Source of the DNA: Escherichia coli
GTDB taxonomy: Bacteria > Pseudomonadota > Gammaproteobacteria > Enterobacterales > Enterobacteriaceae
Length of the DNA: 64,000 bases
NCBI RefSeq assembly: GCF_002854065.1
Contig: NZ_CP024147.1
Strand: one strand, 5' to 3'
Below, piece by piece: positions 8,576-42,460 of the stretch (the stretch's first letter is position 1; each line of letters starts with the position of its first letter). The notes under the pieces are model-generated. The model saw only the letters and a program-made list of their open reading frames with translations, did no database searches and had not been told where the DNA came from. Made by a program: the position numbers and the translations under genes.

Positions 8576-8649
8576 ATATAATCCTTATAAAAAATATAAT
8601 GTTTAACTCGTCATATTGCTTATAAAAAATCCCCGGTAATGACTCCAAC

Positions 8650-9153
8650 TTATTGATAGTGTTTTATGTTCAGATAATGCCCGATGACTTTGTCATGCAG
8701 CTCCACCGATTTTGAGAACGACAGCGACTTCCGTCCCAGCCGTGCCAGGTGCTGCCTCAGATTCAGGTTATGCCGCTCAATTCGCTGCGTATATCGCTTG
8801 CTGATTACGTGCAGCTTTCCCTTCAGGCGGGATTCATACAGCGGCCAGCCATCCGTCATCCATATCACCACGTCAAAGGGTGACAGCAGGCTCATAAGAC
8901 GCCCCAGCGTCGCCATAGTGCGTTCACCGAATACGTGCGCAACAACCGTCTTCCGGAGCCTGTCATACGCGTAAAACAGCCAGCGCTGGCGCGATTTAGC
9001 CCCGACGTATCCCCACTGTTCGTCCATTTCCGCGCAGACGATGACGTCACTGCCCGGCTGTATGCGCGAGGTTACCGACTGCGGCCTGAGTTTTTTAAAT
9101 GGCGGAAAATCGTGTTGAGGCCAACGCCCATAATGCGGGCGGTTGCCCGGCAT
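8650..9153 (-). CDS. insB: IS1 transposase InsB
   Basis: 167-aa [19 protein letters not shown]... Confidence 0.9.
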
Positions 9154-9347
9154 CCAACGCCATTCATGGCCATATCAATGATTTTCTGGTGCGTACCGGG
9201 TTGAGAAGCGGTGTAAGTGAACTGCAGTTGCCATGTTTTACGGCAGTGAGAGCAGAGATAGCGCTGATGTCCGGCAGTGCTTTTGCCGTTACGCACCACC
9301 CCGTCAGTAGCTGAACAGGAGGGACAGCTGATAGAAACAGAAGCCAC
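9072..9347 (-). CDS. insA: IS1 InsA
   Basis: 91-aa [21 protein letters not shown]...; A6C frameshift motif before insB. Confidence 0.9.
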
Positions 9348-9660
9348 TGGAGCACCTCAAAAACACCATCATACACTAAATCAGTAAGTTGGCAGCATCA
9401 CCAAAATCCCCGTTCTCAGAGAAATAATATTTATTAAAATGGCAGGTCTTCTTTTTCTGATTACCGAAGACAAAGTGGCAATTACGTATAGTTTCCCGAT
9501 AAAGACACGACAGCAACATCCCGCATAAGGCATTGTTCTCTTTATCTTTGTACGGTACTTCATGGAACAGAGATTTTGACCTTGCGAATCGTGATGTCTG
9601 TTGGGGGCAATTTGCTCACTGAAGCGTGAGACTCGATTAAACGCACGAAACACAGAAATC

Positions 9661-9700
9661 AAAAAACCCGGCCACTTTTTTACAAAGTGACCGGGTAAAA
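9661..9700 (-). terminator. Terminator downstream of tRNA-Asn (minus strand)
   Basis: Near-perfect hairpin cccggccactt...aagtgaccggg flanked by A/T runs. Confidence 0.5.
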
Positions 9701-9757
9701 ATAATTTTTATTTTTTAACTGCCTTGAGACTCATAGAGATGTCTCAAAACTAAAATT

Positions 9758-9833
9758 TGGCTCCTCTGACTGGACTCGAACCAGTGACATACGGATTAAC
9801 AGTCCGCCGTTCTACCGACTGAACTACAGAGGA
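9758..9833 (-). tRNA. asnW: tRNA-Asn (GUU)
   Basis: Reverse complement of TCCTCTGTAGTTCAGTCGGTAGAACGGCGGACTGTTAATCCG...GGAGCCA; anticodon loop CUGUUAA; name by synteny. Confidence 0.9.
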
Positions 9834-9933
9834 ATCGTGAGAACGAGGCGAATATTAGCGATGCCCACCCACAATGTCAAAGCCTGTTTTTTAAATTTGA
9901 AATCGTTTGCTGAAATAATCTGCATTTTGTCGT

Positions 9934-11581: not shown

Positions 11582-11657
11582 TCCTCTGTAGTTCAGTCGG
11601 TAGAACGGCGGACTGTTAATCCGTATGTCACTGGTTCGAGTCCAGTCAGAGGAGCCA
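11582..11657 (+). tRNA. asnU: tRNA-Asn (GUU)
   Basis: 76-nt sequence identical to the other two tRNA-Asn copies, ends CCA. Confidence 0.9.
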
Positions 11658-11694: not shown

Positions 11695-12645
11695 CTATAT
11701 CTGATAATCAATTTCCTCTTCACTGCTTTCCATCACCTGCCGCTTGATATCCTCAACTGACAGTCCTGCATTACAAAGTTCCAGAAAGCGCCAGACATAG
11801 TTACGCTGAAGTTGTCCTCGCTTCAGTCCCAACCAGACAGTATTAGCATCAAAAAGATGCCGCGTATCCAGGCGGATTAAATTCTCTTCCTCTTGTTCGC
11901 CACTGGATTGCTCGGCAACTAATCCGATCCCAAGCCCAAGAGCAACATAGGTTTTAATGACATCAGAATCCTGCGCACTTAATACAATATCTGCCAGCAA
12001 ACCTTTGCGGGCAAATGCGTCATCAATACGTGAGCGCCCCGTAATCCCCTGTCGGTAAGTGATTAACGGCCACTTCGCTATTGATTCCAGCGTCAATGGT
12101 GAAATTTGCGTCAAGGGATGATCGTGTGGAACAAGCAAACTATGGTGCCAACGAAACCACGGGAAGGCGACGAGCTGCGGGTCATTACTCAAACGCTCGC
12201 TGGCGATACCAATATCAGCTTCGCCATTTTGCAACAATGTCGCAATTTCCTGTGGCGTCCCCTGGATTAGCTCGAGCCGAACCTCCGGGAAAAGTTCGCG
12301 AAAAGCTTTAATGACCTCTGGCAAGCTATAACGTGCCTGAGTATGCGTCGTTGCAATAGTGAGAACGCCAGACGTATCGTTGGTAAACAGGTCTGCAAGC
12401 CGACGAACATTACTGGCTTCATTCAGAATACGTTCTGCAATGACCAGTAATGCTTTGCCCGGTTCAGTCATGCCCAGCAGTCGCTTACCTCGTCGAACAA
12501 ATATTTCGATGCCAAGTTCATCCTCCAGTTCCCGAATATGACGGCTGACGCCTGACTGTGAGGTAAAAAGCATATTCGCAACCTCTGTCAGGTTGTAATC
12601 CTGACGTGCAGCCTCGCGGATTATCTTTAGTTGTTGGAAATTCAC
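11695..12645 (-). CDS. cbl: LysR-family regulator Cbl
   Basis: 316-aa ORF with LysR N-terminal HTH (MNFQQLKIIREAARQ...). Confidence 0.85.
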   Translation of the reverse strand: MNFQQLKIIREAARQDYNLTEVANMLFTSQSGVSRHIRELEDELGIEIFVRRGKRLLGMTEPGKALLVIAERILNEASNVRRLADLFTNDTSGVLTIATTHTQARYSLPEVIKAFRELFPEVRLELIQGTPQEIATLLQNGEADIGIASERLSNDPQLVAFPWFRWHHSLLVPHDHPLTQISPLTLESIAKWPLITYRQGITGRSRIDDAFARKGLLADIVLSAQDSDVIKTYVALGLGIGLVAEQSSGEQEEENLIRLDTRHLFDANTVWLGLKRGQLQRNYVWRFLELCNAGLSVEDIKRQVMESSEEEIDYQI

Positions 12646-12746
12646 GGTAAACTCCGGGCAGTTCAGATTTCCCGTTATTGTTAAAGTCTAATGCCCGGCA
12701 TAACAAATAATAAAAACCCGCATCTTATTCCATCCCGATATAACAC

Positions 12747-13664
12747 TTAGCTCACCAATTGCCACTGCCTTTTTTCCATCACTGGAGAACTAATCACTGA
12801 CATTAACAACTCTTTCACTGCCTGTGCCTGTGGCGATAAGTTCGCTCTGGCGGGTAAATTTAATGACAAAGAGAGACTCATGGAAGGAGTGGTAATGCGT
12901 GACATCCACCCATTTACTGCGCCACATAACGAACGCGCGGCCGATTCGGGTAATACTGCAACGCCCATGCCGCTGGCAATCGCTGCGGTAAGCGTGGCAA
13001 TAGACTCAATTTCACCAATAACTTTTGCCGTGAGTCGCCGTAGGGAAAAAGCCTCATCAACACGAAGTCTAATAGCACTGTAATCACTGGGGAGAAAGAG
13101 GTTCATTTGCGCAATAGCATTCACATCAACGCTTTGCCCCGGGCAATCTTGAGTTCCTACCAGAAAAAGATCTTCTTTCAGCAAAGCCTGACTGGATACA
13201 CCAGCCACAGGGGAATGCTCATAAATCACCGCCATATCGAGTTGGTGATTTATCAATTTTTCGTTAAGCACTGCACCACTATTTTCATGAAGATAGATAA
13301 CGATCTCCGGAAATTCAGCGCGAACCGCCTGTAATAAGGGCATGGTGATGGATGACGCAGCGGTTCCTGGTGCAAAGCCAATCGAGACTTGCCCCGATAA
13401 TGCCTGACCAACGTTATGCACCGCCAGTTGGGCCTGTTCACACTGACGTAAAATGGCCCGCGCATGGGTATAGAGAATTTTTCCGGCGTCTGTTGGTGTA
13501 ACGCCCCGCTTTGTACGGATCAAAAGTTGTTGATTTAACTCACCTTCCAGTGTGGCAACCTGCTGGCTGAGCGCTGGTTGTGCGATATGCAATACTTCAG
13601 CAGCCTGGGTCAGGCTACCAATATCTACAATTTTTACGAAGTATTTCAGGCGTCTGAAGTTCAT
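12747..13664 (-). CDS. nac: Nitrogen assimilation control protein Nac (LysR family)
   Basis: Start at internal ATG (MNFRRLKYFVKIV...), 305 aa; sigma-54 promoter upstream. Confidence 0.85.
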   Translation of the reverse strand: MNFRRLKYFVKIVDIGSLTQAAEVLHIAQPALSQQVATLEGELNQQLLIRTKRGVTPTDAGKILYTHARAILRQCEQAQLAVHNVGQALSGQVSIGFAPGTAASSITMPLLQAVRAEFPEIVIYLHENSGAVLNEKLINHQLDMAVIYEHSPVAGVSSQALLKEDLFLVGTQDCPGQSVDVNAIAQMNLFLPSDYSAIRLRVDEAFSLRRLTAKVIGEIESIATLTAAIASGMGVAVLPESAARSLCGAVNGWMSRITTPSMSLSLSLNLPARANLSPQAQAVKELLMSVISSPVMEKRQWQLVS

Positions 13665-13719
13665 GTTGCCTCCGGTTTTTAAGAATCGGCCCAAGCGCCG
13701 CCATTACTTACAACCAGAT

Positions 13720-13735
13720 TGCAAGATGCTTGCCA
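13720..13735 (-). promoter_or_regulatory. Sigma-54 (-24/-12) promoter of nac
   Basis: Minus-strand sequence TGGCAAGCATCTTGCA matches TGGCAC-N5-TTGCA; ~55 nt upstream of nac start. Confidence 0.7.
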
Positions 13736-13990
13736 GTTTTATTTTGGTGTTGATGTACAAGCTAACCAACTGTCAAATAAGAGATTATGATAGATTCGTC
13801 ATTTGCTCCTTTAATCAGCTGTCGCGTTCCCCTGCCCTATAAAAGGAGGGTATGCACCACGATGGTTCATTACCCAATAAGATTGAAAGCTCACCACTTT
13901 GTTGAAATTGACAGCAAACAAACAAAAAAATGCATTTCACCCTTTGACATCACCATGCACTGCCATTAATATGCGCCCCGTTCACACGAT

Positions 13991-14066
13991 TCCTCTGTAG
14001 TTCAGTCGGTAGAACGGCGGACTGTTAATCCGTATGTCACTGGTTCGAGTCCAGTCAGAGGAGCCA
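13991..14066 (+). tRNA. asnV: tRNA-Asn (GUU)
   Basis: Third identical 76-nt tRNA-Asn copy; followed by hairpin terminator 14070-14100. Confidence 0.9.
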
Positions 14067-14121
14067 AATTCAAAAAAGCCTGCTTTCTAGCAGGCTTTTT
14101 GCTTTCTAATTACCAACGCTC

Positions 14122-15057
14122 TTAAAACATCTGTCTTGAACCAGAACTAATTTGCACAGGCATTCCCGATCGACGTTGCAACGCAGCATTTGCGCGATTT
14201 ACATCAACTTCTTGCCCGTTGATAAACGCCCGCAAAGATGGGGTTACCGGCAATGGCACTTTTCGGTCAGACTCATATTCTGCACGATTGCGCGACAACG
14301 GCTCATGAACTTCCAGCCAGTTCGAGCCATCTGGTTCAGTGGTGTATTTTACTGGCTGGTCGATAATTTGCACACGCGTCCCAACAGGAACATTATCAAA
14401 CAGATATTTGATATCGTCATTGCGCAGACGAATACAGCCCTGACTTACCCGGAGCCCAATACCAAAATTGGCATTGGTACCATGGATGGCATACAACCTG
14501 CCAATATAAATCGCGTACAGCCCCATGGGATTATCGGGGCCCGCAGGAACAAATGCGGGCAAACTCTCCCCTCGTTTCGCATATTCGCGCCGAGTGTTCG
14601 GCGTTGGCGTCCAGGTTGGAGCTTCTTGTTTACGTTCAACGGTAGTCACCCAGTTACGCGGGGTTTCTCGCCCAGCCTGGCCGATACCAATAGGAAAGAC
14701 TTCCACAGTATTACTGTCTGGTGGGTAGTAATAAAGACGCATCTCAGCGACGTTAACAACAATCCCTTTACGAACAGTGTCGGGCAAAATCAGTTGCTGC
14801 GGAATGGTGAGTTGCGAGCCAGACTTCGGCAAAAAAACATCAGCGCCCGGGTTCGCTTCCAGCATGTTACTTAACCCTTGCCCGTATTGTGCGGCAAAAG
14901 TCTCCAGCGGCTGGGTATTGTGATCAGGAACAGTTACAGTAAACGACTGCCCCACTAAACGGCTACCCTCTGGAGGTAATGGATAAGTTACCGCCAGGCT
15001 AGTATGGCTGGCAAAAAGCAGAGCAAATGAGCAAAGAATATTTACACGACGCATCAT
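14122..15057 (-). CDS. ldtA: L,D-transpeptidase (ErfK/YkuD family); start may be the second ATG (15054)
   Basis: 311-aa ORF with signal peptide and YkuD-type catalytic region (...[20 protein letters not shown]). Confidence 0.85.
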
Positions 15058-15118
15058 GTCCCTTTCCTATGTCGCGAAAGCTATCCGTTAAGTATAGCTT
15101 TTATCAGACTTTTCGTTT

Positions 15119-16198
15119 TTAACTGTTCAAATCAGAAGTCGTATTCCCCGGTAGAACAATATTACTGGCAGCAAGTTCGCCCATGTTGTTGTATATCGCA
15201 CAGGCAGCTTCGATGATGGGCATCGCCAGAGCTGCGCCACTCCCCTCACCTAAACGCATCTCCATATTGAGATAAGGCTCCAGCCCCAAATGCGAGAGCG
15301 CTATACGCGCGCCTTTTTCTGCCGACAGGTGAGAAGGAATGAGATACGGTTTTATCGCAGGAGACATCTGGCAGGCTGCGAGCGCAGCAGCATAAGAAAG
15401 AAATCCATCCAGCAACACGGGTAAACCGCAGGAAGCAGCACCTAACATCACTCCAGCTATTCCGACCAAATCAAATCCACCCACTTTTGCCAGGACATCA
15501 ACACCATCCTGAGGATTTGGTTGATTCAACGTAATCGCCCGACGCACAACATCAATTTTATTAGCCAGTTTATCTGTCGGCAGGTTTGCGCCAATCCCAA
15601 CCACTTCTTCAGGATCCCGGCCAGTGATTGTGCTGACTATTGCTGCTGCCGGTGTCGTGTTTGCCATCCCCAGTTCACCTACACCAAACAGCGTGACACC
15701 GTTTTTTGCCAGCTCCTGCGTATAACATATGACGTCCAAAAGCAACTTTTCAGCCTGACGGCGACTCATTGCCGGAGCTGAAGCAATATTGCTGCTACCT
15801 CGTGCGACACGCATGTTGATAAGCCCGGGGATAGGCTCAGCAGTATCAATACCAACATCAATTACGTGGACGTTAGCGCCCGCTTGTTCTGCCAGCACAC
15901 ACACGCCGGTTGTTCCACGGGTCATATTTTCAGCCTGTATGGCTGTCACTTCTTTTGGAGAAATAGCGACCCCTTCCTCCCAGACGCCGTGATCGGCACA
16001 CATAACCAGTACCGCTTTTTTGCCCACATGCGGTATGCCATTCAACCCCGGCATTCCTGCCAGTTGTATGGCAAGCACCTCCAGCTTTCCCAGGCTACCA
16101 ACAGGTTTGAGTAACCCGTCAATATGCCGTTGTGCACGCGACATAGCGGTAGAATCGATGGCTGGGATCGTATTCAGTAAATCGGCAAGTATTTGCAT
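15119..16198 (-). CDS. cobT: Nicotinate-nucleotide--dimethylbenzimidazole phosphoribosyltransferase
   Basis: 359-aa ORF recognised as CobT. Confidence 0.9.
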
Positions 16199-16209
16199 CT
16201 CACGTCTCT

Positions 16210-16953
16210 TTATAGCAGTGCCAGCAGGAAGACCAGTTCACCAAGCTCTATGGCTGCTCCCAGCGTATCGCCCGTTTGCCCGCCCAGCGTACGTTTGAGA
16301 AGCTGACCGAGGATGAAAATCGCCACCATCGTCACCACCATAGCAGCCACACCATGCATACCCGGCAATAATACGGCAGCAAAAATAGCGGCTAAGCCGA
16401 GTGTGACGCAGGTTTGTCGCCCATCAATTTTGCCAATGAACACATTGCCAAGCCCTTCTTCCCGCGCATAACGATGACGATACATCAATAATGCGGCAGT
16501 CCCGCGGCTGACCGCACATGCTGCCGCCAGCGATGCAAGGATCGATTCGCCACGCAGAGCCAACTCGCTTAACACCAGAATCTTTGCCAGTACCACAAAA
16601 ATCAATGCCAGACCGCCGTGGGTGCCTAAACGGCTATCACGCATGATTTCCAACATGCGATCGCGGCTACGTGCAGAAAATACGCCATCACAGGTATCAG
16701 CGAGGCCGTCCAGATGGAATCCCCCGGTCATCAGCACCAGCACAAGTACGCTAAACAGTGCCGCCAGTGGTGCGCCACACCATGCCTGCAGCACCATGAA
16801 GACCAGCCCGCTAATCGCGCCAAGCAATAATCCAATCAAAGGAAAAGTAATAATACCGCGAGAATAATGCTCGAAATCCAGTCCCTGGGACCAGCGACGC
16901 GGTACAGGCAGACGCGTAATAAATGAGAGCATCGCCCAAAATAATTTACTCAT
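16210..16953 (-). CDS. cobS: Cobalamin (5'-phosphate) synthase
   Basis: Start at internal ATG (MSKLFWAML...); membrane protein; 4-nt overlap with cobU stop. Confidence 0.85.
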
Positions 16954-17495
16954 TTGATTTTTACTCCAATACCCGAAACCACCAGCCATACTTCATTTGC
17001 CGCAGCGGCCAACTGCTGATTTACCCGCCCGGCAATATCACGAAAATGTCGTGCCAGACGACTCTCCGGCACAATCCCCATTCCCACTTCGTTAGTCACT
17101 AATACAACCTTTGCGGGGCAACGTTGGCAGGCAGCAATCAACGACTGAATCTCAGCATTAATCGCCTGTTCCATCGCCTGATAATCCCATTCATCAGGGT
17201 CTTTATCGCCGCCATAATCAAACAACAGATTAGTCACCATTGTGGTAACGCATTCAAGCAACACAACCTCATTCGGGTTAATGTCTGCATGAATTAATTC
17301 ATCAAGATGTTGCCAGCGCTCCACTGTGCGCCAGTGCTCCGGGCGGCCTTGCCGATGATGTTCTATCCGTGCAGCCATCTCATCATCAAGGATTTGCGAG
17401 GTAGCGATATACAGAACCTGTGAAGAGTCCCCAATAAGCGCCTCTGCGTGGCGACTCTTCCCGCTCCGTGCGCCCCCCGTCACCAAAATCATCAT
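16950..17495 (-). CDS. cobU: Adenosylcobinamide kinase/adenosylcobinamide-phosphate guanylyltransferase
   Basis: 181-aa ORF with P-loop GGARSGKS. Confidence 0.9.
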
Positions 17496-18520
17496 ACCGA
17501 CTCCTGATTCAAATGTATGATGGTATTCATTGAACAGAACAATGGATCCCCCACCGTTGCTGACCGCAAAACATTTACGCGATTAATACTGCGCGTAATA
17601 TAATTAAAAATCCAGCATTCTCAATCCATTACGAAATAAGATGGCATTACGGAATAGCCAGACTTTCTCGTGTTAACGTCCGACAAAATGCGTCATTGAC
17701 AGCGGTTTCTGTGGATTGACACATTTCATTCAGATAATGAATTAATGCTACTGCCGGAACAACCAGCAAACGGGCATTGTGTTCTGAAATCCAGGCTATT
17801 GATTCAACGTCAGCGACAGATCTGCGCTGTAAAAGAACTTGTAAAACAACGTAATAGAATTATCCGGAATGGTGGCGACTATGCACTAGAACACCACAAT
17901 TTCGCTCTCTCGGTAAGGCACTGTCACAGCATTCAACAGAATGTGACTTGCCAGATTTATTAGCGCCACCAGATGTTTAACCGGGTAACCACGACCCAGT
18001 CGGGGATATATTCCATCTTCTCGCTGACATCATCAAGAATAAAAAGGTTTATCACACTCAGAGCAACGTTCTTCAGCAGGCGGGATAATTCTTCAACATT
18101 TAGAAGATGTGTTATTAAAGGCATACAAACTGGACGTATTGTATTTTCTTTTGGTGGTTGACCTAAGGTAGCAGTTTATCCTGATGCGCTGAGATTTCTG
18201 TAATATCTACGTCAACATTCTCCTCGAATAGAAAATGCAGCCCCGGCAAGTGATTCACATTTTTTAACAAAACGTTGTTAGCGTGCCATTTTCAGAAGCT
18301 CTCCAAGAAAGCGAATTCTTTTCTCAAATTCTGCATTCTCAGACACAGCTTTCTACTCCATGGTAATGGCCCAAATACGAAGTTGCTCAGGATCATTAGT
18401 GGTGCTGAGAAGTTAAATAACCATGCGGAGTACCACTCGTCATCACGTATTTATATATCATGAAGCTATTGTTGTGTTTTGTACATCAGTAGATATATTC
18501 TGATATACTCCTTTTGCTAG

Positions 18521-32506: not shown

Positions 32507-33214
32507 ATGGATTTGAATAAATTCGATGAGCCATTCAGCCCTGAAGATATCGAATGGCGAATACAGCAAAGCGGTAAAACACGCGATGGCAAGGTGTGGG
32601 CTATGGTGCTGGCTTATGTAACGAACCGGGCAATCATGAAACGCCTGAACGATGTTTGCGGCAAAGCAGGATGGCGCAATGAATACCGCGATATTCCCAA
32701 CAACGGCGGAGTTGAATGCGGCATATCAATCAGGATTGATTCCGAATGGGTAACCAAATGGGATGCTGCTGAAAACACGCAGGTAGAAGCCGTCAAAGGT
32801 GGTCGTTCCGGCGCAATGAAGCGCGCTGCCGTTCAATGGGGAATCGGTCGGTATCTGTATAACCTTGAGGAAGGTTTCGCACAAACATCTCTCGATAAAA
32901 AGCAGGGGTGGCACAGGGCAAAACTGAAGGATGGAACAGGATTTTACTGGCTCCCTCCATCGCTGCCGGGATGGGCAATACCAGCATCAGATAACAAACC
33001 ATCACCAGAAAATACCAACCAGAAATCTCCATCGGTTGACTGCGAACAAATCCTGAAAGACTTCAGCGATTATGCATCAACAGAAACTGACAAGAAAAAA
33101 CTCATCGAGCGTTATCAGCGTGACTGGCAATTAATGGCTGGCAACGAGGAGGCGCAGGCTAAATGCGTTCAGGTAATGAGCATCAGAGTTAACGAACTAA
33201 AACAGGCGGCATAA
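32507..33214 (+). CDS. Rad52/Rad22-type single-strand annealing protein (phage recombinase)
   Basis: 235-aa ORF immediately upstream of a phage SSB gene; sequence resembles Rad52-family phage proteins. Confidence 0.55.
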   Translation: MDLNKFDEPFSPEDIEWRIQQSGKTRDGKVWAMVLAYVTNRAIMKRLNDVCGKAGWRNEYRDIPNNGGVECGISIRIDSEWVTKWDAAENTQVEAVKGGRSGAMKRAAVQWGIGRYLYNLEEGFAQTSLDKKQGWHRAKLKDGTGFYWLPPSLPGWAIPASDNKPSPENTNQKSPSVDCEQILKDFSDYASTETDKKKLIERYQRDWQLMAGNEEAQAKCVQVMSIRVNELKQAA

Positions 33215-33721
33215 ATGGCAAGCAGAGGCGTAAATAAGGTGATTATCCTTGGTCGGGTAGGACAAGACCCGGAAGTTCGATACTCACCATCAGGAACAGC
33301 GTTCGCTAACCTGACAATAGCCACGTCAGAACAATGGCGAGATAAAAATACTGGCGAGCAAAAGGAATTGACTGAATGGCATCGTGTTGCTGTATCCGGG
33401 AAACTGGCTGAGGTCGTGGGGCAGTATGTGAAAAAAGGTGATCAGATTTATTTCGAGGGAATGCTGAGAACCAGAAAGTGGAAAGACCAGTCAGGGCAAG
33501 ACCGTTACACAACCGAGGTTCATGTCGGAATTAATGGCGTGATGCAAATGCTTGGCGGCATTGGCGACAGCAAACAACAAGCAGCCAGCAGGCAATCACA
33601 GAAGCCACAGCAGCAATCATCACCAGCACAACACAACGAACCTCCGATGGATTTTGACGACGATATACCCTTTGCACCAGTAACTCTCCCCTTCCCTCGT
33701 CACGCTATTCACGCAATTTAA
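33215..33721 (+). CDS. ssb: Single-stranded DNA-binding protein (phage SSB)
   Basis: 168-aa ORF with OB-fold N-terminus ([18 protein letters not shown]...) and acidic C-terminal tail DFDDDIPF. Confidence 0.85.
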
Positions 33722-33734
33722 TCAGGAGAAAATC

Positions 33735-34031
33735 ATGCCAGCGCCTCTGTATGGTGCGGATGACGCGCGCCGCTGTTCCGGCAATTCCGTATCGGAGGTG
33801 CTGGATAAATTCAGGAAAAACTACAACCGGATAATGTCGCTACCGCAGGAAACGAAAGAGGAAAAGGAATTTCGCCACTGTATATGGCTTGCAGAGAAAG
33901 AAGAACGCGAGCGAATTTACCAGACATCAATCCGACCATTCCGCAAAGCCACATATACCCACTTCCCTGAATATATCGACCCGCGCCTGCGTAATTACCG
34001 CTCACGCTATGGCGCTATCAGTAATGACTGA
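33735..34031 (+). CDS. Hypothetical phage protein
   Basis: 98-aa ORF in co-oriented phage early-gene string. Confidence 0.4.
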
Positions 34032-34040
34032 GGAATTTAC

Positions 34041-34205
34041 CATGAGAGGACTTGCATACAATCCCGGAATTCTTCCGGCAGAAATGATTATTCGCCAACG
34101 CGTAAAGCCAATGCCATCGAGAGAGGAATTGCTTAAGAGAAAGAGTTTCGGTTCTGTTAATGACAACAAATATCTGAATGCGATGTGGCTGAGTGGGAAG
34201 AAATG
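34041..34205 (+). CDS. Hypothetical small phage protein
   Basis: 54-aa in-frame segment from ATG 34041 within ORF 33889-34206; start uncertain. Confidence 0.3.
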
Positions 34206-34685
34206 AAACAAATGACACTAATTGAGATGGATGGATTTCTGAAAGGTAAATGCATCCCATGTGATTTAAAGGTTAACGAAACAAACGCTGAATATCTTGT
34301 GCGTAAGTTCGGTGAACTTGAATCAAAACTAGAAACGGCGTTGCGGGAGTGTAGTTCTGCTGGAATCACGATTGATAACCTTGAGGCCAAGTGCGCGAAG
34401 ATGGCTGCTGAAAATACCTCGCTTAAGCAATCTGAGAAGGAATTTAATGACTTTTGTCGTGAGGAGTTTAGCGAATGGGAAGATGATGTTACTGAAACCC
34501 CAGCCACCGATGCTTTCCTGGCTGAAGTACGGGCGCAGGGGGTAGAGATGTACGCAGATAACCTCGACAACGGAGCAGACGACGCAGAACGAGGTGGTTT
34601 TGATTATGCCGCTAAGTTTCTACGCGGTGAGGCGTCTAGTGTACGCTTGTTCGCCGACCAGCTTCGCAAAGGAGGCAACCAGTGA
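34185..34685 (+). CDS. Ead/Ea22-like phage protein (start may be ATG 34203)
   Basis: 166-aa ORF with coiled-coil/acidic features typical of lambdoid Ea22-like proteins. Confidence 0.5.
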
Positions 34686-35161
34686 GCAAGATTAACTATC
34701 AGGCACTGCGTGAGGCGGCGGAACGTGCAATTCCAGCAATGGAACGCCTGTTAATGTTGCCAGTTGATGATGATTTGTTAAGTGAACAGGAACTTAAAGA
34801 TTACGGTGTGGATATTGATGCGCTCAACGCCTTCAAATTTCTGACCGGACCAGAAACCGTGCTGGCGCTGCTGGATGAGCTGGAAAGAAAACAGCAATAC
34901 ATCAAATCCCGAGACCAGGAGAACGAGGATATTGCGCTAACGGTAGGGAAGCTGCGCGTTGAGCTGGAAGCCGCAGAGAAGCGCATTGCTGAGCTGGAGT
35001 TGCGGGAGGTTGTGCTTCCGCAATGCTATAGCATGTTGCATCGCGTCGATTTTGACGAGCCTTACCACACTGAAATGGTTTACAGGCAGCATCAGGTTCT
35101 TGAGGCACTGCACAACGCTGGAATAAACGTCACCGAAGCAGGTAAAGGAGAGGCATCATGA
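34682..35161 (+). CDS. Ead/Ea22-like phage protein
   Basis: 159-aa ORF, coiled-coil region (LRVELEAAEKRIAELELRE); overlaps neighbours by 4 nt. Confidence 0.5.
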   Translation: MSKINYQALREAAERAIPAMERLLMLPVDDDLLSEQELKDYGVDIDALNAFKFLTGPETVLALLDELERKQQYIKSRDQENEDIALTVGKLRVELEAAEKRIAELELREVVLPQCYSMLHRVDFDEPYHTEMVYRQHQVLEALHNAGINVTEAGKGEAS

Positions 35162-35670
35162 GCACTATCACAAGAGAATGGCTGCAGCAGGCTATCAACG
35201 ATTATGAAAGCGTTCGTGATGAGCTTCCTTTCGGGCTTGATGATTACCAGGGGAATATCCTGGCTGCCCTGCGTATCGCACTGGCATCGCTGGAAGCAGA
35301 GCCGGTGGCGTGGAAGGTAACATTCACGCAAATTGACCGTGAATATAACACGTTCACTGGTATGTATTCTGACAAAGCAGAAGTCGAACGGTGGGTGCGG
35401 CTGCATAAAGCATGTAATTTTCGGGCAGATATAACACCGCTTTATACCGCCAAGCCAGTGCCGGTAACTCCGGATGGTTGGATAAGCTGTAGTGAGCGAA
35501 TGCCAGAGGACGGTCAGCACGTAATTATTTTATGTGATGGCGCATTCGTTCTTTATGCGCAATATCGAGACGGAGAGTTTTTCGATATTGTCCGCAATGG
35601 TGATGAATTTTTCGAAACACAGAGTCGCAATGTAACCGACTGGATGCAACTACCAGAACCTCCCCTTTGA
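35158..35670 (+). CDS. DUF551-type phage protein
   Basis: 170-aa ORF; C-terminal region (PDGWISCSERMPEDGQHVIILCDG) resembles DUF551. Confidence 0.5.
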   Translation: MSTITREWLQQAINDYESVRDELPFGLDDYQGNILAALRIALASLEAEPVAWKVTFTQIDREYNTFTGMYSDKAEVERWVRLHKACNFRADITPLYTAKPVPVTPDGWISCSERMPEDGQHVIILCDGAFVLYAQYRDGEFFDIVRNGDEFFETQSRNVTDWMQLPEPPL

Positions 35671-35766
35671 TAGCTAAGCTTATACATATCTTTTACATCA
35701 GCAATCTATTGTTAATCTCCAATCAATGTTACGTTGTCATCTCTCTCATGCTTTGGAGGTAGTGAT

Positions 35767-35958
35767 ATGTCTTGTCCAAAATGCGGTTCTGGAAATATTG
35801 CAAAAGAAAAAACAATGCGTGGATGGTCTGATGATTATGTGTGCTGCGATTGCGGATACAACGACTCTAAAGACGCATTTGGAGAGCGTGGTAAAAACGA
35901 GTTTGTCAAAATTAATAAAGAACGCGAAGGCGGTGATGCTGCCAACTTACTGATTTAG
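35767..35958 (+). pseudogene. Phage zinc-ribbon protein with C-terminus altered by IS1 insertion (native end ...EREGNEKS reconstructed across the IS)
   Basis: CxxC...CxxC motif (MSCPKCGSG...YVCCDCGY); GGAGGT RBS 6 nt upstream of ATG 35767; reading frame runs into the IS1 terminal repeat. Confidence 0.55.
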
Positions 35959-35986
35959 TGTATGATGGTGTTTTTGAGGTGCTCCA

Positions 35987-36262
35987 GTGGCTTCTGTTTC
36001 TATCAGCTGTCCCTCCTGTTCAGCTACTGACGGGGTGGTGCGTAACGGCAAAAGCACTGCCGGACATCAGCGCTATCTCTGCTCTCACTGCCGTAAAACA
36101 TGGCAACTGCAGTTCACTTACACCGCTTCTCAACCCGGTACGCACCAGAAAATCATTGATATGGCCATGAATGGCGTTGGATGCCGGGCAACCGCCCGCA
36201 TTATGGGCGTTGGCCTCAACACGATTTTCCGCCATTTAAAAAACTCAGGCCGCAGTCGGTAA
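35987..36262 (+). CDS. insA: IS1 InsA
   Basis: 91-aa ORF. Confidence 0.9.
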
Positions 36263-36684
36263 CCTCGCGCATACAGCCGGGCAGTGACGTCATCGTCTGC
36301 GCGGAAATGGACGAACAGTGGGGATACGTCGGGGCTAAATCGCGCCAGCGCTGGCTGTTTTACGCGTATGACAGGCTCCGGAAGACGGTTGTTGCGCACG
36401 TATTCGGTGAACGCACTATGGCGACGCTGGGGCGTCTTATGAGCCTGCTGTCACCCTTTGACGTGGTGATATGGATGACGGATGGCTGGCCGCTGTATGA
36501 ATCCCGCCTGAAGGGAAAGCTGCACGTAATCAGCAAGCGATATACGCAGCGAATTGAGCGGCATAACCTGAATCTGAGGCAGCACTTGGCACGGCTGGGA
36601 CGGAAGTCGCTGTCGTTCTCAAAATCGGTGGAGCTGCATGACAAAGTCATCGGGCATTATCTGAACATAAAACACTATCAATAA
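36181..36684 (+). CDS. insB: IS1 transposase InsB
   Basis: 167-aa ORF. Confidence 0.9.
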
Positions 36685-36823
36685 GTTGGAGTCATTACCC
36701 GCGAAGGCAACGAAAAAAGCTAATTTATTTATTCATATATGAAAACAATGTAATAAATATTCGAATTGAAGAATTGAAAGAACACCAAGCCGCCTGATGG
36801 CGGTTTTTTATTGGAGACAAGAA

Positions 36824-37168
36824 ATGTCAGATTTGGCTATGAAGGTTTTGAAATGGCAATCGACTGGCGATGTCGGCATCAGTAGCGCAACTCTTGCCTC
36901 AATCGCATGTGGCCTGAAAAAGAATATCTATGGTCATCACTTCGGCGCTCCCCATGACGCAGCAGACTTTCGGCGATGCGTTGCACTTGTTGAGCAGATT
37001 CCAGAAATCAGAGATTCATTCGACAAGGTTGCAAAGCGCGTTCCGGCATTCAAAGGAATCCTCAACGAATGGGATTCACTCGTTGCTCTGTTGAAGTCTG
37101 AAATGAAGACGTACGGGAACAAAGCACCAGAGACTTACAGAAGAATCAGCGAGCTACGCAAGGACTAA
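36824..37168 (+). CDS. Hypothetical phage protein (moron-like unit bracketed by hairpin/T-run elements)
   Basis: Start at ATG 36824 (MSDLAMKVLKWQ...) with GGAGA RBS; GC hairpin plus T-run at 36789-36809 and a similar element at 37209-37229. Confidence 0.45.
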   Translation: MSDLAMKVLKWQSTGDVGISSATLASIACGLKKNIYGHHFGAPHDAADFRRCVALVEQIPEIRDSFDKVAKRVPAFKGILNEWDSLVALLKSEMKTYGNKAPETYRRISELRKD

Positions 37169-37245
37169 CGCCTCACACTCGATGAGGCCTGTACATATCT
37201 GATAGATCCGCTATATGGCGGTTTATTTTTGCCTGGAGAATTAAG

Positions 37246-37437
37246 ATGACCGATACCAGCCTGATTCCTGAGAAAGAAGTGATGAACAAGCTCGGTGTTT
37301 CATCACGTCAGACAATCTGGAACTATACCAAACGGCACGGATTTCCGAAGCCAGTCAGAACCCACCCCAAATCATACCTTCGTGAAGCTGTTGAAGGGTG
37401 GATTCTTAACGGTGGCGTTAATCAGAAATGCTCCTGA
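37246..37437 (+). CDS. alpA: AlpA-family phage transcriptional regulator / excisionase-like
   Basis: 63-aa ORF with HTH (VSSRQTIWNYTKRHGFPKP), convergent with and adjacent to integrase. Confidence 0.7.
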   Translation: MTDTSLIPEKEVMNKLGVSSRQTIWNYTKRHGFPKPVRTHPKSYLREAVEGWILNGGVNQKCS

Positions 37438-38596
37438 TGTGCCAGAACAATTTATCAGCGTGAAGCTCATACGCTTTGCGCTGAGCCTCTATCCAGTCGT
37501 GTTTATTGTATACGGACATTATCCCGCCAAGTTCATGACCGAGCATTCGCTCAGTAACATGAGGCTCGACATTCATCTCGGACAGACGTGTAACAAGCGT
37601 TCTTCTGAAATCGTGTGTTCGCCAGTAACCTAGATCCATCCCTCCCCTTATTCTATTTACGAATCGGTTGGCTGCAGCGATGCTGATCGGTTTGTTTATG
37701 TCTTCTCCAGGGAAAAGAACATCATTGTACGTTGTCATGGCCTTTTCGAGGAAAGGCTTAATTTGTTCGAAGATTGGACGGCGGATAACATTACCCATCT
37801 TGCTATGCTCTTTCGGTACGGTCCATACGTTTTCCAGCAGGTCAAATTCTGTCTTTTTTGCCAGCCTAAGCTCTGAGAGCCTCGCCCCCCACAGCATAAG
37901 CATCTGATGAAGTAGCTTATTTGACGTAGACGCACGGCTTCTTTCAATAGCAAGCCAAATCTTAGCCAGTTCGTGATACGACAGTACCCGATCCCCTACC
38001 TCAGCGCGGGAGCCGAAGTCCCTTGGTTGGATGCTCATAATTGCGCAACTATCTATCAACTGACGCCGCATGCACCAACTTATTGCTGATCTTAGTTGAC
38101 TTAGCACCTGCCTTGCTCGGCGTGGATTATCTCTTTCTTCTTCGGTAAGCAGGTCAACCCATTGCTTAACCGTGATAGAAGATGCCGGACGATTAGGAAA
38201 GGCGTCATGCATGCGCTTCATAACCGTTGATCGGTAAAGTGCCTGGGTCTTTTCTCTGAGAGTTGTAGAGACGTAGTTGTCGAACCAGTAGTCGAGACAC
38301 TGGGCGACCGTCATGGAGTTCTCCACCTTCTCTTCAAAATAAGTGCGTGGATCCGTTCCTGAGAAATAGAGCTTTCGCAAGTCAGCAGTGATCTGTCTGG
38401 CATCCTTCAAAGACAGGGATGGGTATCGACCAAGCCCAAGTCGATTAGGCTTGCCATGCCAGCGATAGCGGTACTGGAACTGGATGACCCCCTTCGGTGA
38501 AATTCGTACGCTGAGGCCATCGGCATCAGCCACTTCTTGTGGGCCCGAATATGGTTTACCATAAATACTACGCAGTTTTGTGTCGCTTATAGCCAT
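37418..38596 (-). CDS. int: Tyrosine-type phage integrase (P4-type, N-terminal arm-binding domain)
   Basis: 392-aa ORF with integrase catalytic region (HDFRRT...LGH...Y); adjacent to attR. Confidence 0.85.
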   Translation of the reverse strand: MAISDTKLRSIYGKPYSGPQEVADADGLSVRISPKGVIQFQYRYRWHGKPNRLGLGRYPSLSLKDARQITADLRKLYFSGTDPRTYFEEKVENSMTVAQCLDYWFDNYVSTTLREKTQALYRSTVMKRMHDAFPNRPASSITVKQWVDLLTEEERDNPRRARQVLSQLRSAISWCMRRQLIDSCAIMSIQPRDFGSRAEVGDRVLSYHELAKIWLAIERSRASTSNKLLHQMLMLWGARLSELRLAKKTEFDLLENVWTVPKEHSKMGNVIRRPIFEQIKPFLEKAMTTYNDVLFPGEDINKPISIAAANRFVNRIRGGMDLGYWRTHDFRRTLVTRLSEMNVEPHVTERMLGHELGGIMSVYNKHDWIEAQRKAYELHADKLFWHIRSISD

Positions 38597-38605
38597 AAAT
38601 AATAT

Positions 38606-38648
38606 TTGGTACGCTCAGAAATAATGGTTTGGTACACATCTGGTACAC
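38606..38648. repeat. Direct repeats TTTGGTAC(G/A)C x3, putative integrase arm-type sites (attR side)
   Basis: tttggtacgc 38606-38615, tttggtacac 38628-38637, ctggtacac 38640-38648; matching pair on attL side at 23638-23660. Confidence 0.5.
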
Positions 38649-38777
38649 AATATCACATGGACAACAGCGCACAGTAAACAACTATATTTGACGTTCGTAG
38701 ACATACTCAGGTGAAAAAATGGTTGTTTTTCGAGTTATAACAGACAGTTAATTAACTACAGTGGACAATGCTAGACA

Positions 38778-40202
38778 ATGACAGACGCAGATAAACAACC
38801 TACCTTCCTCTTTCACGATTACGAAACCTTTGGCACGCACCCCGCGTTAGATCGCCCTGCACAGTTCGCAGCCATTCGCACCGATAGCGAATTCAATGTC
38901 ATCGGAGAACCCGAAGTCTTTTACTGCAAGCCCGCTGATGACTATTTACCCCAGCCAGGAGCAGTATTAATTACCGGTATTACCCCGCAGGAAGCACGGG
39001 CGAAAGGAGAAAACGAAGCCGCGTTTGCCGCCCGTATTCACTTGCTTTTTACCGTACCGAAGACCTGTATTCTGGGCTACAACAATGTGCGTTTCGACGA
39101 CGAAGTCACACGCAACATTTTTTATCGTAATTTCTACGATCCTTACGCCTGGAGCTGGCAAAACCGCAATTCGCGCTGGGATCTGCTTGACGTGATGCGC
39201 GCCTGCTATGCCCTGCGCCCGGACGGCATCAACTGGCCGGAAAACGACGACGGTCTGCCGAGCTTCCGCCTGGAACATCTCACCAAGGCCAACGGTATTG
39301 AACACAGTAACGCCCATGATGCGATGGCCGACGTTTACGCGACCATCGCCATGGCGAAGCTGGTGAAGGCCCAACAGCCAAAGCTGTTTGATTATCTGTA
39401 TGCCTACCGGGGCAAAAACAAGCTGATGACGCTGATTGACGTCCCGCAGATGAAGCCACTGGTGCATGTCTCGGGAATGTTTGGCGCCTGGCGCGGAAAC
39501 ACCAGCTGGATTGCGCCGCTGGCCTGGCATCCGGATAACCGTAATGCGGTGATCATGGTCGACCTGGCGGGCGACATCGCCCCGCTGCTCGAGCTGGATG
39601 CCGATACGCTGCGCGAGCGCCTGTATACGCCGAAGGCCGAGCTCGGCGACAGTTCGCCGGTGCCGATTAAGCTGGTGCATCTGAATAAGTGCCCGGTGCT
39701 GGCGCAGGCCAATACCCTGCGCCCAGAAGACGCTGACCGTTTAGGCATTAACCGACAGCACTGCCTGGATAACCTGAAACTGCTGCGCGATAACCCGCAG
39801 GTGCGCGAGAAGGTGGTGGCGATTTTTGCTGAAGCCGAGCCGTTTGTCGCATCGGACAACGTCGACGCCCAGCTTTATAACGGTTTCTTTAGCGACGCCG
39901 ACCGCGCGGCGATGAAAATCGTGCTGGAGACCGAGCCGCGCAATCTGCCGGCGCTGGACATTACCTTCGCCGACCCGCGTATTGAGAAGCTGCTGTTTAA
40001 CTTCCGCGCGCGCAACTTCCCCGGCACGCTGGATGAAAACGAGCAACAGCGCTGGCTGGAACACCGTCGGCAGATCTTCACCCCGGAATTTTTACAGGCC
40101 TACGCCCAGCAACTGGAGATGTTGTACGGTCAGTATGAGGGGAATAACGAGAAGCTATCGCTGCTGAAGGCGCTGTATCAGTACGTGCAGGAGATTGTTT
40201 AA
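38778..40202 (+). CDS. sbcB: Exodeoxyribonuclease I, with phage-supplied promoter and first ~11 codons (MTDADKQPTFLF...)
   Basis: 474-aa ORF with DnaQ-like exonuclease N-terminus (FLFHDYETFG); hairpin terminator 40211-40241 downstream. Confidence 0.9.
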   Translation: MTDADKQPTFLFHDYETFGTHPALDRPAQFAAIRTDSEFNVIGEPEVFYCKPADDYLPQPGAVLITGITPQEARAKGENEAAFAARIHLLFTVPKTCILGYNNVRFDDEVTRNIFYRNFYDPYAWSWQNRNSRWDLLDVMRACYALRPDGINWPENDDGLPSFRLEHLTKANGIEHSNAHDAMADVYATIAMAKLVKAQQPKLFDYLYAYRGKNKLMTLIDVPQMKPLVHVSGMFGAWRGNTSWIAPLAWHPDNRNAVIMVDLAGDIAPLLELDADTLRERLYTPKAELGDSSPVPIKLVHLNKCPVLAQANTLRPEDADRLGINRQHCLDNLKLLRDNPQVREKVVAIFAEAEPFVASDNVDAQLYNGFFSDADRAAMKIVLETEPRNLPALDITFADPRIEKLLFNFRARNFPGTLDENEQQRWLEHRRQIFTPEFLQAYAQQLEMLYGQYEGNNEKLSLLKALYQYVQEIV

Positions 40203-40255
40203 TTCAACGCAGCGACGCCGGAAAATCTTCCCGGCGTCGCTTGATGCCTGGGGCA

Positions 40256-40480
40256 TTATTTCTGTACGGTGATGGTCCACGCCGCATCGCCAGACTGCTG
40301 ATAGTCCGTGACCGTAAAGCCCTCTTCCGCCGCCCACTGCGGGATGGCTTCCGTCGCCTGAGTACAGTCGAACTCAATCACCAGCTGGTCGCCGCTGGCC
40401 AGTTCCGCCATCGCCGCCTTCGCTTCAATTAACGGGAACGGGCAAACCTGCGTGACTACGTCCAGTTTCTTCACAACCAT
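40256..40480 (-). CDS. yeeD: TusA-like sulfurtransferase
   Basis: 74-aa ORF with CPxP motif (VCPFPLIEAK). Confidence 0.85.
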   Translation of the reverse strand: MVVKKLDVVTQVCPFPLIEAKAAMAELASGDQLVIEFDCTQATEAIPQWAAEEGFTVTDYQQSGDAAWTITVQK

Positions 40481-40525
40481 TTTTTCTACTCCTTAAGCCG
40501 TTGCGGTTTTCAGTTTTGCTTTCCG

Positions 40526-41494
40526 CTACGGGCGAACATACAACATCCACGACGCGCACCACACGCCGAGAATCATAAATACCAGGCCAATCCAGCCCTG
40601 CCAGGTCATCATCGCCGTCATCACCAAACCGTTGCCGATCGAGCAGCCGCCGGCAATGCTGGCACCGAAGCCCATCAGTACGCCGCCACCCGCGCTACGC
40701 AGCGTGGTGCTGGCATCGGCAGCGCGGACGCGGAATTCACGGCTGGCTTTCGCGGCAATAAACGAACCGATAAAGATTCCCAGCACCAGGAAGACGCCCC
40801 AGTTGAGGTACTTGCTGTCACCCCCCACCAGGAACTGCAGGATATTGGCGGTCGGCGAGGTAATGCCAAGGCCAAACATACGTCCGGTGGCCTCACTCAG
40901 CGGCCAGGCCAGCAGGGCGATAAGGCCAATCAGCACGGCGGTCACAAACGGATGCCAACGCTTTTCAAACAGCAGATGCGCCAGGCCAGTGCGGCGCGGC
41001 GGCAGAGAAGCTACTTTGAGCTTTGGTTTGCTCAGCTCTTTGCGAACAAACCACAGGGTCACCGCCACCAGCAGAACGATAAGTGGCCAGACGGAGATAT
41101 TCAGGGTTTCGGCAATGCCGTTGTGAGTGGTCGTGTGTTGACCGAGGAATTTGTTAAGCCCAGCCGCGTGCGGTGAACGCATGATCGCGCTCATCACCAT
41201 ATAGGTGACCAGTGCAATCCAGCTGCCAATCAGCCCTTCCCCGGCACGATACCAGGTGCCGGTGGCGCAGCCTCCCGCATAAACGATACCGATACCAAAA
41301 ACAAATCCACCCACCACGGTGCCAAGCCACGGGAACGCGCCTGCATCGTACTGCACCAGGCCAAGCTGGATCAGGGCGAACACGCCGATACTCTGGATAC
41401 AGATAGCAATCAACAGTGCGTAAAACATGCGGTTATTTTTGGTGATATACATATCGCGAAAGCCACCCGTCAGGCAGAAACGACCGCGCTGCAT
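40526..41494 (-). pseudogene. yeeE: YeeE/YedE-family transporter, 5' end severed by IS1 (first ~14 codons lie beyond the IS at ~42283-42330)
   Basis: 322-aa membrane ORF abutting the IS1 end; minus-strand sequence after the IS encodes MIISGMICGAL..., completing the native N-terminus across the 9-bp duplication. Confidence 0.75.
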
Positions 41495-41560
41495 AACGAA
41501 TCCCAGGTGATGCTGCCAACTTACTGATTTAGTGTATGATGGTGTTTTTGAGGTGCTCCA

Positions 41561-41836
41561 GTGGCTTCTGTTTCTATCAGCTGTCCCTCCTGTTCAGCTA
41601 CTGACGGGGTGGTGCGTAACGGCAAAAGCACCGCCGGACATCAGCGCTATCTCTGCTCTCACTGCCGTAAAACATGGCAACTGCAGTTCACTTACACCGC
41701 TTCTCAACCCGGTACGCACCAGAAAATCATTGATATGGCCATGAATGGCGTTGGATGCCGGGCAACTGCCCGCATTATGGGCGTTGGCCTCAACACGATT
41801 TTACGTCACTTAAAAAACTCAGGCCGCAGTCGGTAA
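41561..41836 (+). CDS. insA: IS1 InsA
   Basis: 91-aa ORF. Confidence 0.9.
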
Positions 41837-42258
41837 CCTCGCGCATACAGCCGGGCAGTGACGTCATCGTCTGCGCGGAAATGGACGAACAGTGGGGCTA
41901 TGTCGGGGCTAAATCGCGCCAGCGCTGGCTGTTTTACGCGTATGACAGTCTCCGGAAGACGGTTGTTGCGCACGTATTCGGTGAACGCACTATGGCGACG
42001 CTGGGGCGTCTTATGAGCCTGCTGTCACCCTTTGACGTGGTGATATGGATGACGGATGGCTGGCCGCTGTATGAATCCCGCCTGAAGGGAAAGCTGCACG
42101 TAATCAGCAAGCGATATACGCAGCGAATTGAGCGGCATAACCTGAATCTGAGGCAGCACCTGGCACGGCTGGGACGGAAGTCGCTGTCGTTCTCAAAATC
42201 GGTGGAGCTGCATGACAAAGTCATCGGGCATTATCTGAACATAAAACACTATCAATAA
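41755..42258 (+). CDS. insB: IS1 transposase InsB
   Basis: 167-aa ORF (FTSLKK variant). Confidence 0.9.
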
Positions 42259-42460
42259 GTTGGAGTCATTACCCGAATCCCAGTAAAGCCCCGCAAATCA
42301 TGCCACTTATTATCATGTGCAACATAAGAATCAATTAACTCAATATTATCAGTCTTAAAATTATTCCTGACCCCGCCGGACGGCTCCAATAACCAAAAGC
42401 TCTATATTATTCCCGACGGTTATTAATATTGATTTTTTAATCACCCCACAAACTTAAGAC

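Follow-up and report, generated by a model that had tools for sequence, protein, structure and literature searches.

That the insertion sequence (IS) IS1 occurs as several isoforms, makes its transposase by frameshifting, generates 9-bp target duplications and causes deletions has been textbook knowledge since the 1980s-1990s. We have analyzed a 64-kb stretch of an Escherichia coli genome (contig NZ_CP024147.1), called the window throughout, that contains four copies of IS1 belonging to two sequence types. The IS1 elements of E. coli K-12 have been divided into four types, and the two seen here correspond to types I and II (PMC12428005). Unless there is a -1 shift at the motif AAAAAAC (A6C) only the repressor InsA is made, and the transposase is the fusion protein InsAB' (PMC12428005). 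In K-12 only IS1A and IS1E transpose, types II-IV being nearly inert (PMC12428005). Comparison with these elements and with closely related genomes indicates that the four copies in the window are very probably independent and structurally intact insertions of two isoforms, both recently mobile, and that copy 2 made or mediated the deletion of about 25 kb of a prophage.

The copies were located by repeat search and direct extraction, and were then aligned at the nucleotide (nt) level. An earlier note on this DNA had placed four IS1 elements between 8635 and 42273. They occupy exactly this span, and each is a full-length element of 768 bp with canonical IS1 ends (Table 1). Since the copies are long exact repeats with canonical ends, chance is no concern. 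The repeat itself spreads 5 nt beyond the element ends, which reflects mismatch-tolerant extension; the 9-bp duplications next to copies 1 and 3 are unrelated.

The terminal inverted repeats, GGTGATGCTGCCAACTTACTGAT and GGTAATGACTCCAACTTATTGAT, are about 23 bp long, and the two ends agree at 18 of 23 positions in all four copies. In every copy insA corresponds to nt 56-331 of the element, the -1 frame insB' is open over nt 229-753, and A6C lies at nt 307-313. The conceptual 232-amino acid InsAB' fusion contains the Pfam domains Zn_ribbon_InsA (PF03811, 1.4e-19), HTH_Tnp_IS1 (PF12759, 6.3e-28) and DDE_Tnp_IS1 (PF03400, 3.7e-78). The length and ends, the insA-insB' overlap with its A6C motif, the three-domain fusion and a target duplication in the range of 8-9 bp are together those of the IS1 family. 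By analogy with known elements, the insA frame would give InsA, a repressor with a zinc ribbon and a helix-turn-helix. A rare -1 ribosomal slip at A6C would join InsA to insB', giving the DDE transposase InsAB'. This would work on the 23-bp terminal inverted repeats, and the element would insert with a 9-bp target duplication.

Nucleotide alignment separates the copies into two types. There is 1 nt of difference within one pair (copies 1 and 3) and 2 nt within the other (copies 2 and 4), and seven fixed differences separate the types, at IS nt 127, 262, 298, 301, 304, 393 and 396. The possibility that the copies might prove identical on alignment, which the earlier note had named, together with a low genome-wide IS1 count, as what would overturn its proposal, is thereby removed. 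Private differences are found at nt 432 (copy 2), 444 (copy 4) and 655 (copy 3; synonymous, T). At nt 444 copy 2 has G (Arg65), the base of copies 1 and 3, while copy 4 and K-12 IS1A have T (Ser65).

The two variants had been recognized from the start of the open reading frame (ORF) called 'InsB', and the copies divide as was described. This ORF begins with the ATG at nt 250 and reads MPGNRPHY...PPFKK in copies 1 and 3 and MPGNCPHY...TSLKK in copies 2 and 4, with different residues at positions 5, 17, 18 and 19. However, residues 1-19 are upstream of A6C. The differing residues lie in the -1 frame on its 5' side, and are therefore not part of InsAB'. The quoted difference in protein sequence is best regarded as an artefact of ORF calling, and variation at the annotated 'InsB' N-terminus is no evidence of variation in the protein, as this stretch falls outside InsAB'.

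A different pattern is seen in the frames that are translated. All seven fixed differences occupy third codon positions there, nt 127, 262, 298, 301 and 304 in the insA frame and nt 393 and 396 in insB', and the probability of this by chance is (1/3)^7 = 4.6e-4. Six of the seven are synonymous. The only change of residue results from nt 298, which makes residue 81 of InsA and InsAB' phenylalanine (F81) in copies 1 and 3 and leucine (L81) in copies 2 and 4. The types diverge just 5' of A6C (TTCCGCCATTTAAAAAAC versus TTACGTCACTTAAAAAAC). The restriction to third positions points to long-term selection and not recent decay, and the two isoforms appear to be separate lineages under purifying selection on the translated frames rather than decayed copies of each other.

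For references we used the annotated IS1 elements of K-12 MG1655 and the IS1 of plasmid R100. Copy 1 is 1 nt and copy 3 is 2 nt from K-12 IS1B and IS1C, and they are equally close to the R100 element. Copy 4 is 1 nt and copy 2 is 3 nt from K-12 IS1A. Judged by this comparison, copies 1 and 3 belong to the IS1R/IS1B type (type II), and copies 2 and 4 to the IS1A type (type I). The type I elements of K-12, IS1A and IS1E, share with copies 2 and 4 the length of 768 bp, the ends, L81 in InsA and the A6C motif. Six diagnostic bases (nt 127, 298, 301, 304, 393 and 396) are common to copies 2 and 4 and IS1A. IS1A differs from both copies at nt 262, and from copy 2 additionally at nt 444. There is a third allele at nt 262, with T in copies 2 and 4 and A in IS1A. 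It is silent in InsA (Thr69), and in the untranslated 'InsB' frame it changes residue 5 to S ('MPGNS') in IS1A versus C in copies 2 and 4.

On the side of type II, the IS1R of R100 and the IS1B and IS1C of K-12 have F81 in InsA, as do copies 1 and 3. The K-12 elements differ from copies 1 and 3 in a private T>A at nt 704, producing L152Q (InsB numbering) within the DDE part. Both IS1B and IS1C of MG1655 (9164-9931 and 20635-21402 of locus L004) have L152Q; R100 IS1, IS1A, IS1D and the four copies in the window do not. Exact matches to copy 4 occur in many E. coli chromosomes, including that of strain C, where the annotation pipeline PGAP names them 'IS1A family'. No copy 100% identical to copy 3 was found among complete E. 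coli genomes; the best are 99.9% identical, and the near-exact ones are named 'IS1B family'. K-12 itself carries both types, and our finding is therefore a re-observation of known isoforms. The window contains two long-known, co-resident isoforms of IS1, and in this respect the result is not new.

The same comparison bears on whether the variants might have arisen in place, by mutation or gene conversion after expansion of a single IS1. The private differences within the types, at nt 432, 444 and 655, could be seen in this way, and the base shared by copy 2 with copies 1 and 3 at nt 444 could be a small conversion tract. However, six of the seven diagnostic bases, together with the third allele at nt 262, separate K-12 IS1A from IS1B, IS1C and R100 IS1, and every difference is at a third position of a translated frame. 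As the same diagnostic split exists in K-12 and R100, the division between the types is old and common to strains. An origin in place is effectively refuted, and we regard it as wholly improbable.

It is also conceivable that one isoform, most likely IS1R/IS1B, came recently from a plasmid and then spread on the chromosome, with IS1A as the resident element. Copy 1 is a single nt from R100 IS1. The InsAB' accession WP_095033700.1 is annotated both in R100 and in CUWW06, which is the closest complete genome (99.9-100% identity outside mobile DNA), and the CUWW06 element at the copy 1 site is 0 nt from copy 1. Near-identical IS1B-type copies are found on many E. coli plasmids, and plasmids account for about 15,500 of the approximately 74,800 IS1 places counted across the complete E. 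coli genomes. Yet IS1A-type copies are common on plasmids too, the IS1B type is chromosomal in K-12, and the direction of transfer is not readable from four copies. We consider entry from a plasmid to be unlikely, though worth keeping in mind, and it would be compatible with independent insertion of two mobile isoforms.

Copies 1, 3 and 4 are each flanked by a perfect 9-bp duplication: AAAATCCCC for copy 1 (8626-8634 and 9403-9411), CGCGAAGGC for copy 3 (35923-35931 and 36700-36708) and CGAATCCCA for copy 4 (41497-41505 and 42274-42282). Copy 2 has no target duplication, and its flanks GGTGGGCTT and CGTCAGATG are unlike.

The same sites have been compared in related assemblies. CUWW06 has copy 1, and its copy 4 site is empty, with a single 9-mer. 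The copy 4 site is also empty in EC24, MEI4BO-21, SRR23696841 and ERR10376543. It is occupied in GCA_035821435.1 and in a metagenome contig (L095) that includes 139 nt of IS1 with the nt 127 base of the type of copies 2 and 4. Neither SRR23696841 (L091) nor GCA_035821435.1 (L094) has an insertion at the copy 3 site, where the 9-mer occurs once. The SRR23696841 contig is unbroken across the empty copy 3 and copy 4 sites, and breaks off at the copy 2 junction after 27 nt of IS1. The GCA_035821435.1 contig begins in IS1 at the copy 4 site, crosses the empty copy 3 site and stops in IS1 at the same copy 2 junction. The distribution of occupied and empty sites thus gives the order copy 2, then copy 4 (IS1A type), then copy 3 (IS1R/IS1B type). 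Copy 3 appears to be the youngest insertion, and the site comparisons suggest that both isoforms have transposed recently in this K-12-like lineage. For copy 1, EC24 and MEI4BO-21 have no IS1 annotated at the site; an exact 25-mer of the empty site found no match in either genome, and the absence of copy 1 there is taken from annotation and spacing.

CUWW06 has an additional IS1 of the IS1R/B type beside a cobalamin pseudogene (18944-19711 of the CUWW06 locus L001), flanked by a perfect 9-bp duplication, AATGAATTA. The window has no IS1 at this site. IS turnover continues both in the branch of the window strain and in that of CUWW06.

Pairs of IS1 might instead be Tn9-like composite transposons that carried the DNA between them. 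Copies 3 and 4 are direct repeats 4.8 kb apart around int-sbcB-tsuB-tsuA', and copies 2 and 3 are inverted repeats around 3.6 kb of prophage early genes. Against this, copies 1, 3 and 4 have each their own matched 9-bp duplication, the outer flanks of the pairs are unlike, the sister assemblies give different arrival times for copies 3 and 4, and the DNA between these two is in normal chromosomal order. With their own duplications, copies 3 and 4 must each have inserted alone, and we give composite transposition next to no credence. Recombination between the inverted pairs (copies 2 and 3, 2 and 4, and 1 and 3) was also considered and rejected, as copies 1, 3 and 4 retain matched duplications and the gene order is that of the relatives.

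Other E. coli genomes have IS1 in the tsuA-plaP region, about 50 in number (51 including strain 042). We asked if copy 4 was the same insertion as the tsuA IS1 of strain 042, and rejected this; the site in 042 is different, with a deletion of about 270 bp and no duplication. From the difference in site it follows that tsuA has been struck by IS1 independently. The element at the 5' end of tsuA in strain 042 (L105; NZ_CP042934.2 2091912-2092679) is identical in sequence to copy 4.

Copies 2 and 3 are located in a degraded mosaic prophage. The attachment site beside sbcB is empty in EC24, MEI4BO-21 and ERR10376543, and in CUWW06 the dacD-sbcB interval is occupied by an intact prophage of about 37 kb. 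The baseplate/DNA-circularisation module in the window is 98.6% identical to CUWW06, and the integrase region is 99.8% identical from 37170. The P22-like Rad52/SSB/anti-RecBCD early region is without counterpart in the CUWW06 prophage. The left flank of copy 2 is collinear with that prophage to position 33503 of L001, and the DNA to the right of copy 2 has no counterpart in CUWW06. On the right, the corresponding point in strain c1-17 falls immediately after kil, adjoining the Rad52/SSB early genes. In intact prophages the tape measure, sheath, head and other genes are found upstream of the DNA-circularisation gene. At copy 2 about 25 kb is gone, including the tape measure, sheath, head, packaging, lysis, Q, replication and immunity functions.

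The collinearity on the two sides suggests that copy 2 marks the junction of a deletion of about 25 kb that has joined non-adjacent prophage modules, and this would be the reason for its lack of a target duplication. The arrangement resembles IS1 adjacent deletions and deletions by recombination between IS elements, in that a lone IS1 without duplication joins segments about 25 kb apart. The deletion could have been generated by intramolecular transposition (adjacent deletion) or by homologous recombination between two directly repeated copies of IS1, leaving a crippled prophage; the sequence would fit either route. Searching relatives with the DNA-circularisation protein gave long contigs only, all with intact prophages; this bore out what had been deleted but added no further examples of the tail-side junction of copy 2. 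Strain c1-17 has an IS1 at a similar prophage deletion, and we considered whether the kil-side junction was shared with copy 2. The junctions are 516 bp apart, and this was rejected.

We turn to the abundance of IS elements. The window contains four IS1, one IS5 and a short remnant of the IS4 family (annotated in the CUWW06 counterpart). The IS5 mentioned in the earlier note is a complete element. That note had also judged the IS load to be high, and closer to Shigella or enteroinvasive E. coli (EIEC) than to commensal E. coli. The local density is indeed high. At about 40 copies per 4.65 Mb one expects 0.55 per 64 kb, and the Poisson probability of four or more is approximately 0.0025. Three of the four IS1 copies are located in the dead prophage or an AT-rich spacer. 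We counted IS1 in the four closest complete genomes using a chimeric query in which lineage-specific O-antigen DNA was combined with IS1. There are at least 39 places in CUWW06, at least 39 in 100416, 26 in EC24 and 18 in MEI4BO-21. Of 5426 complete RefSeq E. coli genomes, 4970 have IS1; the median is 11 places, and 388 records (about 7% of the 5426 genomes) hold 40 or more IS1 pieces. None of the 5426 covers 80% or more of 24000-46000, or of 30500-37400, of the window. The lineage is rich in IS1 for E. coli, but inside the range of the species.

Shigella has a median of 194-286 IS per chromosome, of which IS1 makes up 42-59%, and EIEC has 71-164 (Hawkey et al. 2020, PMC7373316). Complete E. 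coli chromosomes have a median total of 32 (interquartile range 22-57), and IS1 is native to E. coli (PMC7373316). The expansions in Shigella and EIEC resemble what we see in that the same native element grows from resident variants, interrupts genes and causes deletions (PMC7373316). A genome of that kind would be expected to carry roughly 80 or more copies of IS1 alone. In favor of a Shigella/EIEC-like genome undergoing massive IS expansion and degradation are the five elements in 64 kb, the counts of at least 39 for CUWW06 and 100416 against the E. coli median, and the interruption of a chromosomal gene, tsuA.

The remaining evidence goes the other way. Shigella and EIEC have IS by the hundred, compared with tens of IS1 in the relatives, and in them IS2, IS4, IS600 and IS911 expand alongside IS1 (PMC7373316). 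There is no IS2, IS600 or IS911 and no intact IS4 in the 64-kb window, and so no sign there of co-expansion. The nearest complete genomes are all labelled E. coli, coming from wastewater, human gut and soil, and two of them have the low counts of 26 and 18; moreover, counts as high as those of the other two are reached in the 388 records. The window is chromosomal, and its backbone is 99.9-100% identical to K-12 MG1655 over 11731-17889. The ORFs of shiA, amn, yeeO, cbl, nac, cobUST, dacD, sbcB, plaP, the his operon, ugd and gnd are intact, and these core ORFs match intact counterparts in CUWW06 and K-12. Within the window only tsuA, among chromosomal genes, and prophage genes are disrupted. 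With a K-12-like backbone and intact local genes, the comparison to Shigella or EIEC is not supported, and such a genome is improbable here. A local cluster of IS elements in a prophage-rich, dispensable region is no diagnosis of a Shigella-like genome.

There are points that weigh against recent independent mobility of both isoforms. Transposition and frameshifting by these copies are presumed from the published biology of IS1. The 2025 study of K-12 found type II (IS1B and IS1C) essentially unable to transpose, and pointed to L81F (PMC12428005). If this inertness were general, copies 1 and 3 may have been mobilised in trans by an IS1A-type transposase rather than autonomously. The IS1 counts of the closest relatives, CUWW06 and 100416, are also lower bounds. 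Set against this is the distribution of the F81 type. It accounts for the youngest insertion in the window (copy 3) and for an independent new insertion in CUWW06, the sister sites being empty in each case. Thus a type reported to be nearly inactive in K-12 (PMC12428005) shows strain-specific insertions here. L152Q, private to the K-12 elements, is a candidate alternative to L81F for the inactivity of type II in K-12. It is possible, and we suggest it tentatively, that an expansion of IS1 is in progress in a K-12-like, non-invasive lineage, with both isoforms currently mobile and the F81 type the most recent to move.

Table 1. Positions in the 64-kb window of the IS elements, their frameshift motifs and the prophage.
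Feature	Position	Strand	Description
IS1 copy 1	8635-9402	-	Assigned to IS1R/IS1B type, InsA F81; AT-rich spacer, yeeN to tRNA-Asn
Copy 1, insB frame ORF	8650-9153	-	
Copy 1, insA	9072-9347	-	
Copy 1, A6C	9090-9096	-	IS nt 307-313
IS5	18521-19715		1195 bp; flanks CTAG and CTAA, no exact 4-bp duplication
Degraded mosaic prophage	23584-38793		Between dacD and sbcB; hosts copies 2 and 3; K-12 homology ends at 23583 and resumes at 38794
Prophage module	24082-31375		Acyltransferase, Mu-like baseplate, DNA-circularisation gene (Pfam)
IS1 copy 2	31520-32287	-	Assigned to IS1A type; apparent deletion junction inside prophage
Copy 2, A6C	31975-31981	-	IS nt 307-313
Prophage module	32507-35670		Rad52, SSB, anti-RecBCD, Ead, DUF551 (Pfam)
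IS1 copy 3	35932-36699	+	Assigned to IS1R/IS1B type; prophage early region, interrupts small Lar-like ORF
Copy 3, A6C	36238-36244	+	IS nt 307-313
Prophage integrase	37418-38596		Pfam
IS1 copy 4	41506-42273	+	Assigned to IS1A type; in tsuA (yeeE), nt 44-52, codons 15-18
Copy 4, A6C	41812-41818	+	IS nt 307-313

Some other features of the window deserve description. Copy 1 is 355 bp from the first of three tRNA-Asn(GTT) genes, at 9758-9833(-), 11582-11657(+) and 13991-14066(+), as in the asnT/U/V region of K-12. The IS5 stands in place of the CP4-44 island of K-12, about 11 kb that includes flu/Ag43, yeeR, yeeS and cbeA/cbtA. Another form of the island is found next to the same IS5 in EC24 and MEI4BO-21. 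The arrangement in the window resembles an IS5-associated deletion, one that CUWW06 shares. Between a GT9 gene and shiA, CUWW06 has a further IS5 (L001 4286-5488) that the window lacks.

Cross-genus exchange is a known phenomenon at the sbcB-his-O-antigen locus. Over the region from about 39150 to 64000, where the window ends, identity to K-12 falls to 72-86%. This segment includes the 3' part of sbcB, tsuBA, plaP, a yeeZ-like gene, hisLGDCBHAFI, ugd, gnd and O-antigen genes, and only 4 of the 5426 complete E. coli genomes match it at 99% identity or more. The best match among species representatives is Kluyvera genomosp. 1. The HisC proteins are 98% identical, versus at most 89% for the other genera returned, and the nucleotide identity is 83-88%, collinear over 38811-55264 and including the plaP-yeeZ-hisL arrangement. 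Between 44076 and 45144 the yeeY, yoeB-yefM and yoeI of K-12 are lacking, and there is only a yeeZ-like short-chain dehydrogenase/reductase gene (44222-45109), as in the Kluyvera locus. The sbcB gene (38778-40202) is chimeric. Its first 370 nt or so are 98-100% K-12-like, and the rest is 84-91% Kluyvera-like and 58-82% identical to K-12. The left breakpoint at about 39150 is sharp, and coincides with no IS1. Taken together, these features suggest that 25 kb or more of a K-12-like backbone has been replaced by DNA from another genus, beginning inside sbcB, spanning the his operon and reaching the O-antigen cluster.

In the part at 52413-64000, wzzB is missing from between hisI and ugd, and the O-antigen cluster extends past the window. 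Beyond gnd are genes of a heptose-nucleotide pathway, encoding a sedoheptulose-7-phosphate isomerase, a heptose bisphosphate phosphatase, a nucleotidyltransferase and a GDP-mannose-4,6-dehydratase-like protein. The O-antigen genes include one for a 719-amino acid methyltransferase of the FkbM family (56719-58878). The Kluyvera-like replacement is the more interesting content of the window when set beside the IS1 finding.

The finding has little import for biology at large. Polymorphism of insertion among near-identical public assemblies yields a relative order of IS events. If the F81 type is indeed moving in this lineage, then the insertions seen here would point to the private L152Q, or to context, as the cause of the inactivity of IS1B and IS1C in K-12, or else to efficient mobilisation in trans by an IS1A-type transposase. 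The empty-site data are natural evidence that the F81 isoform still moves, and they bear on the recent claim made for K-12.

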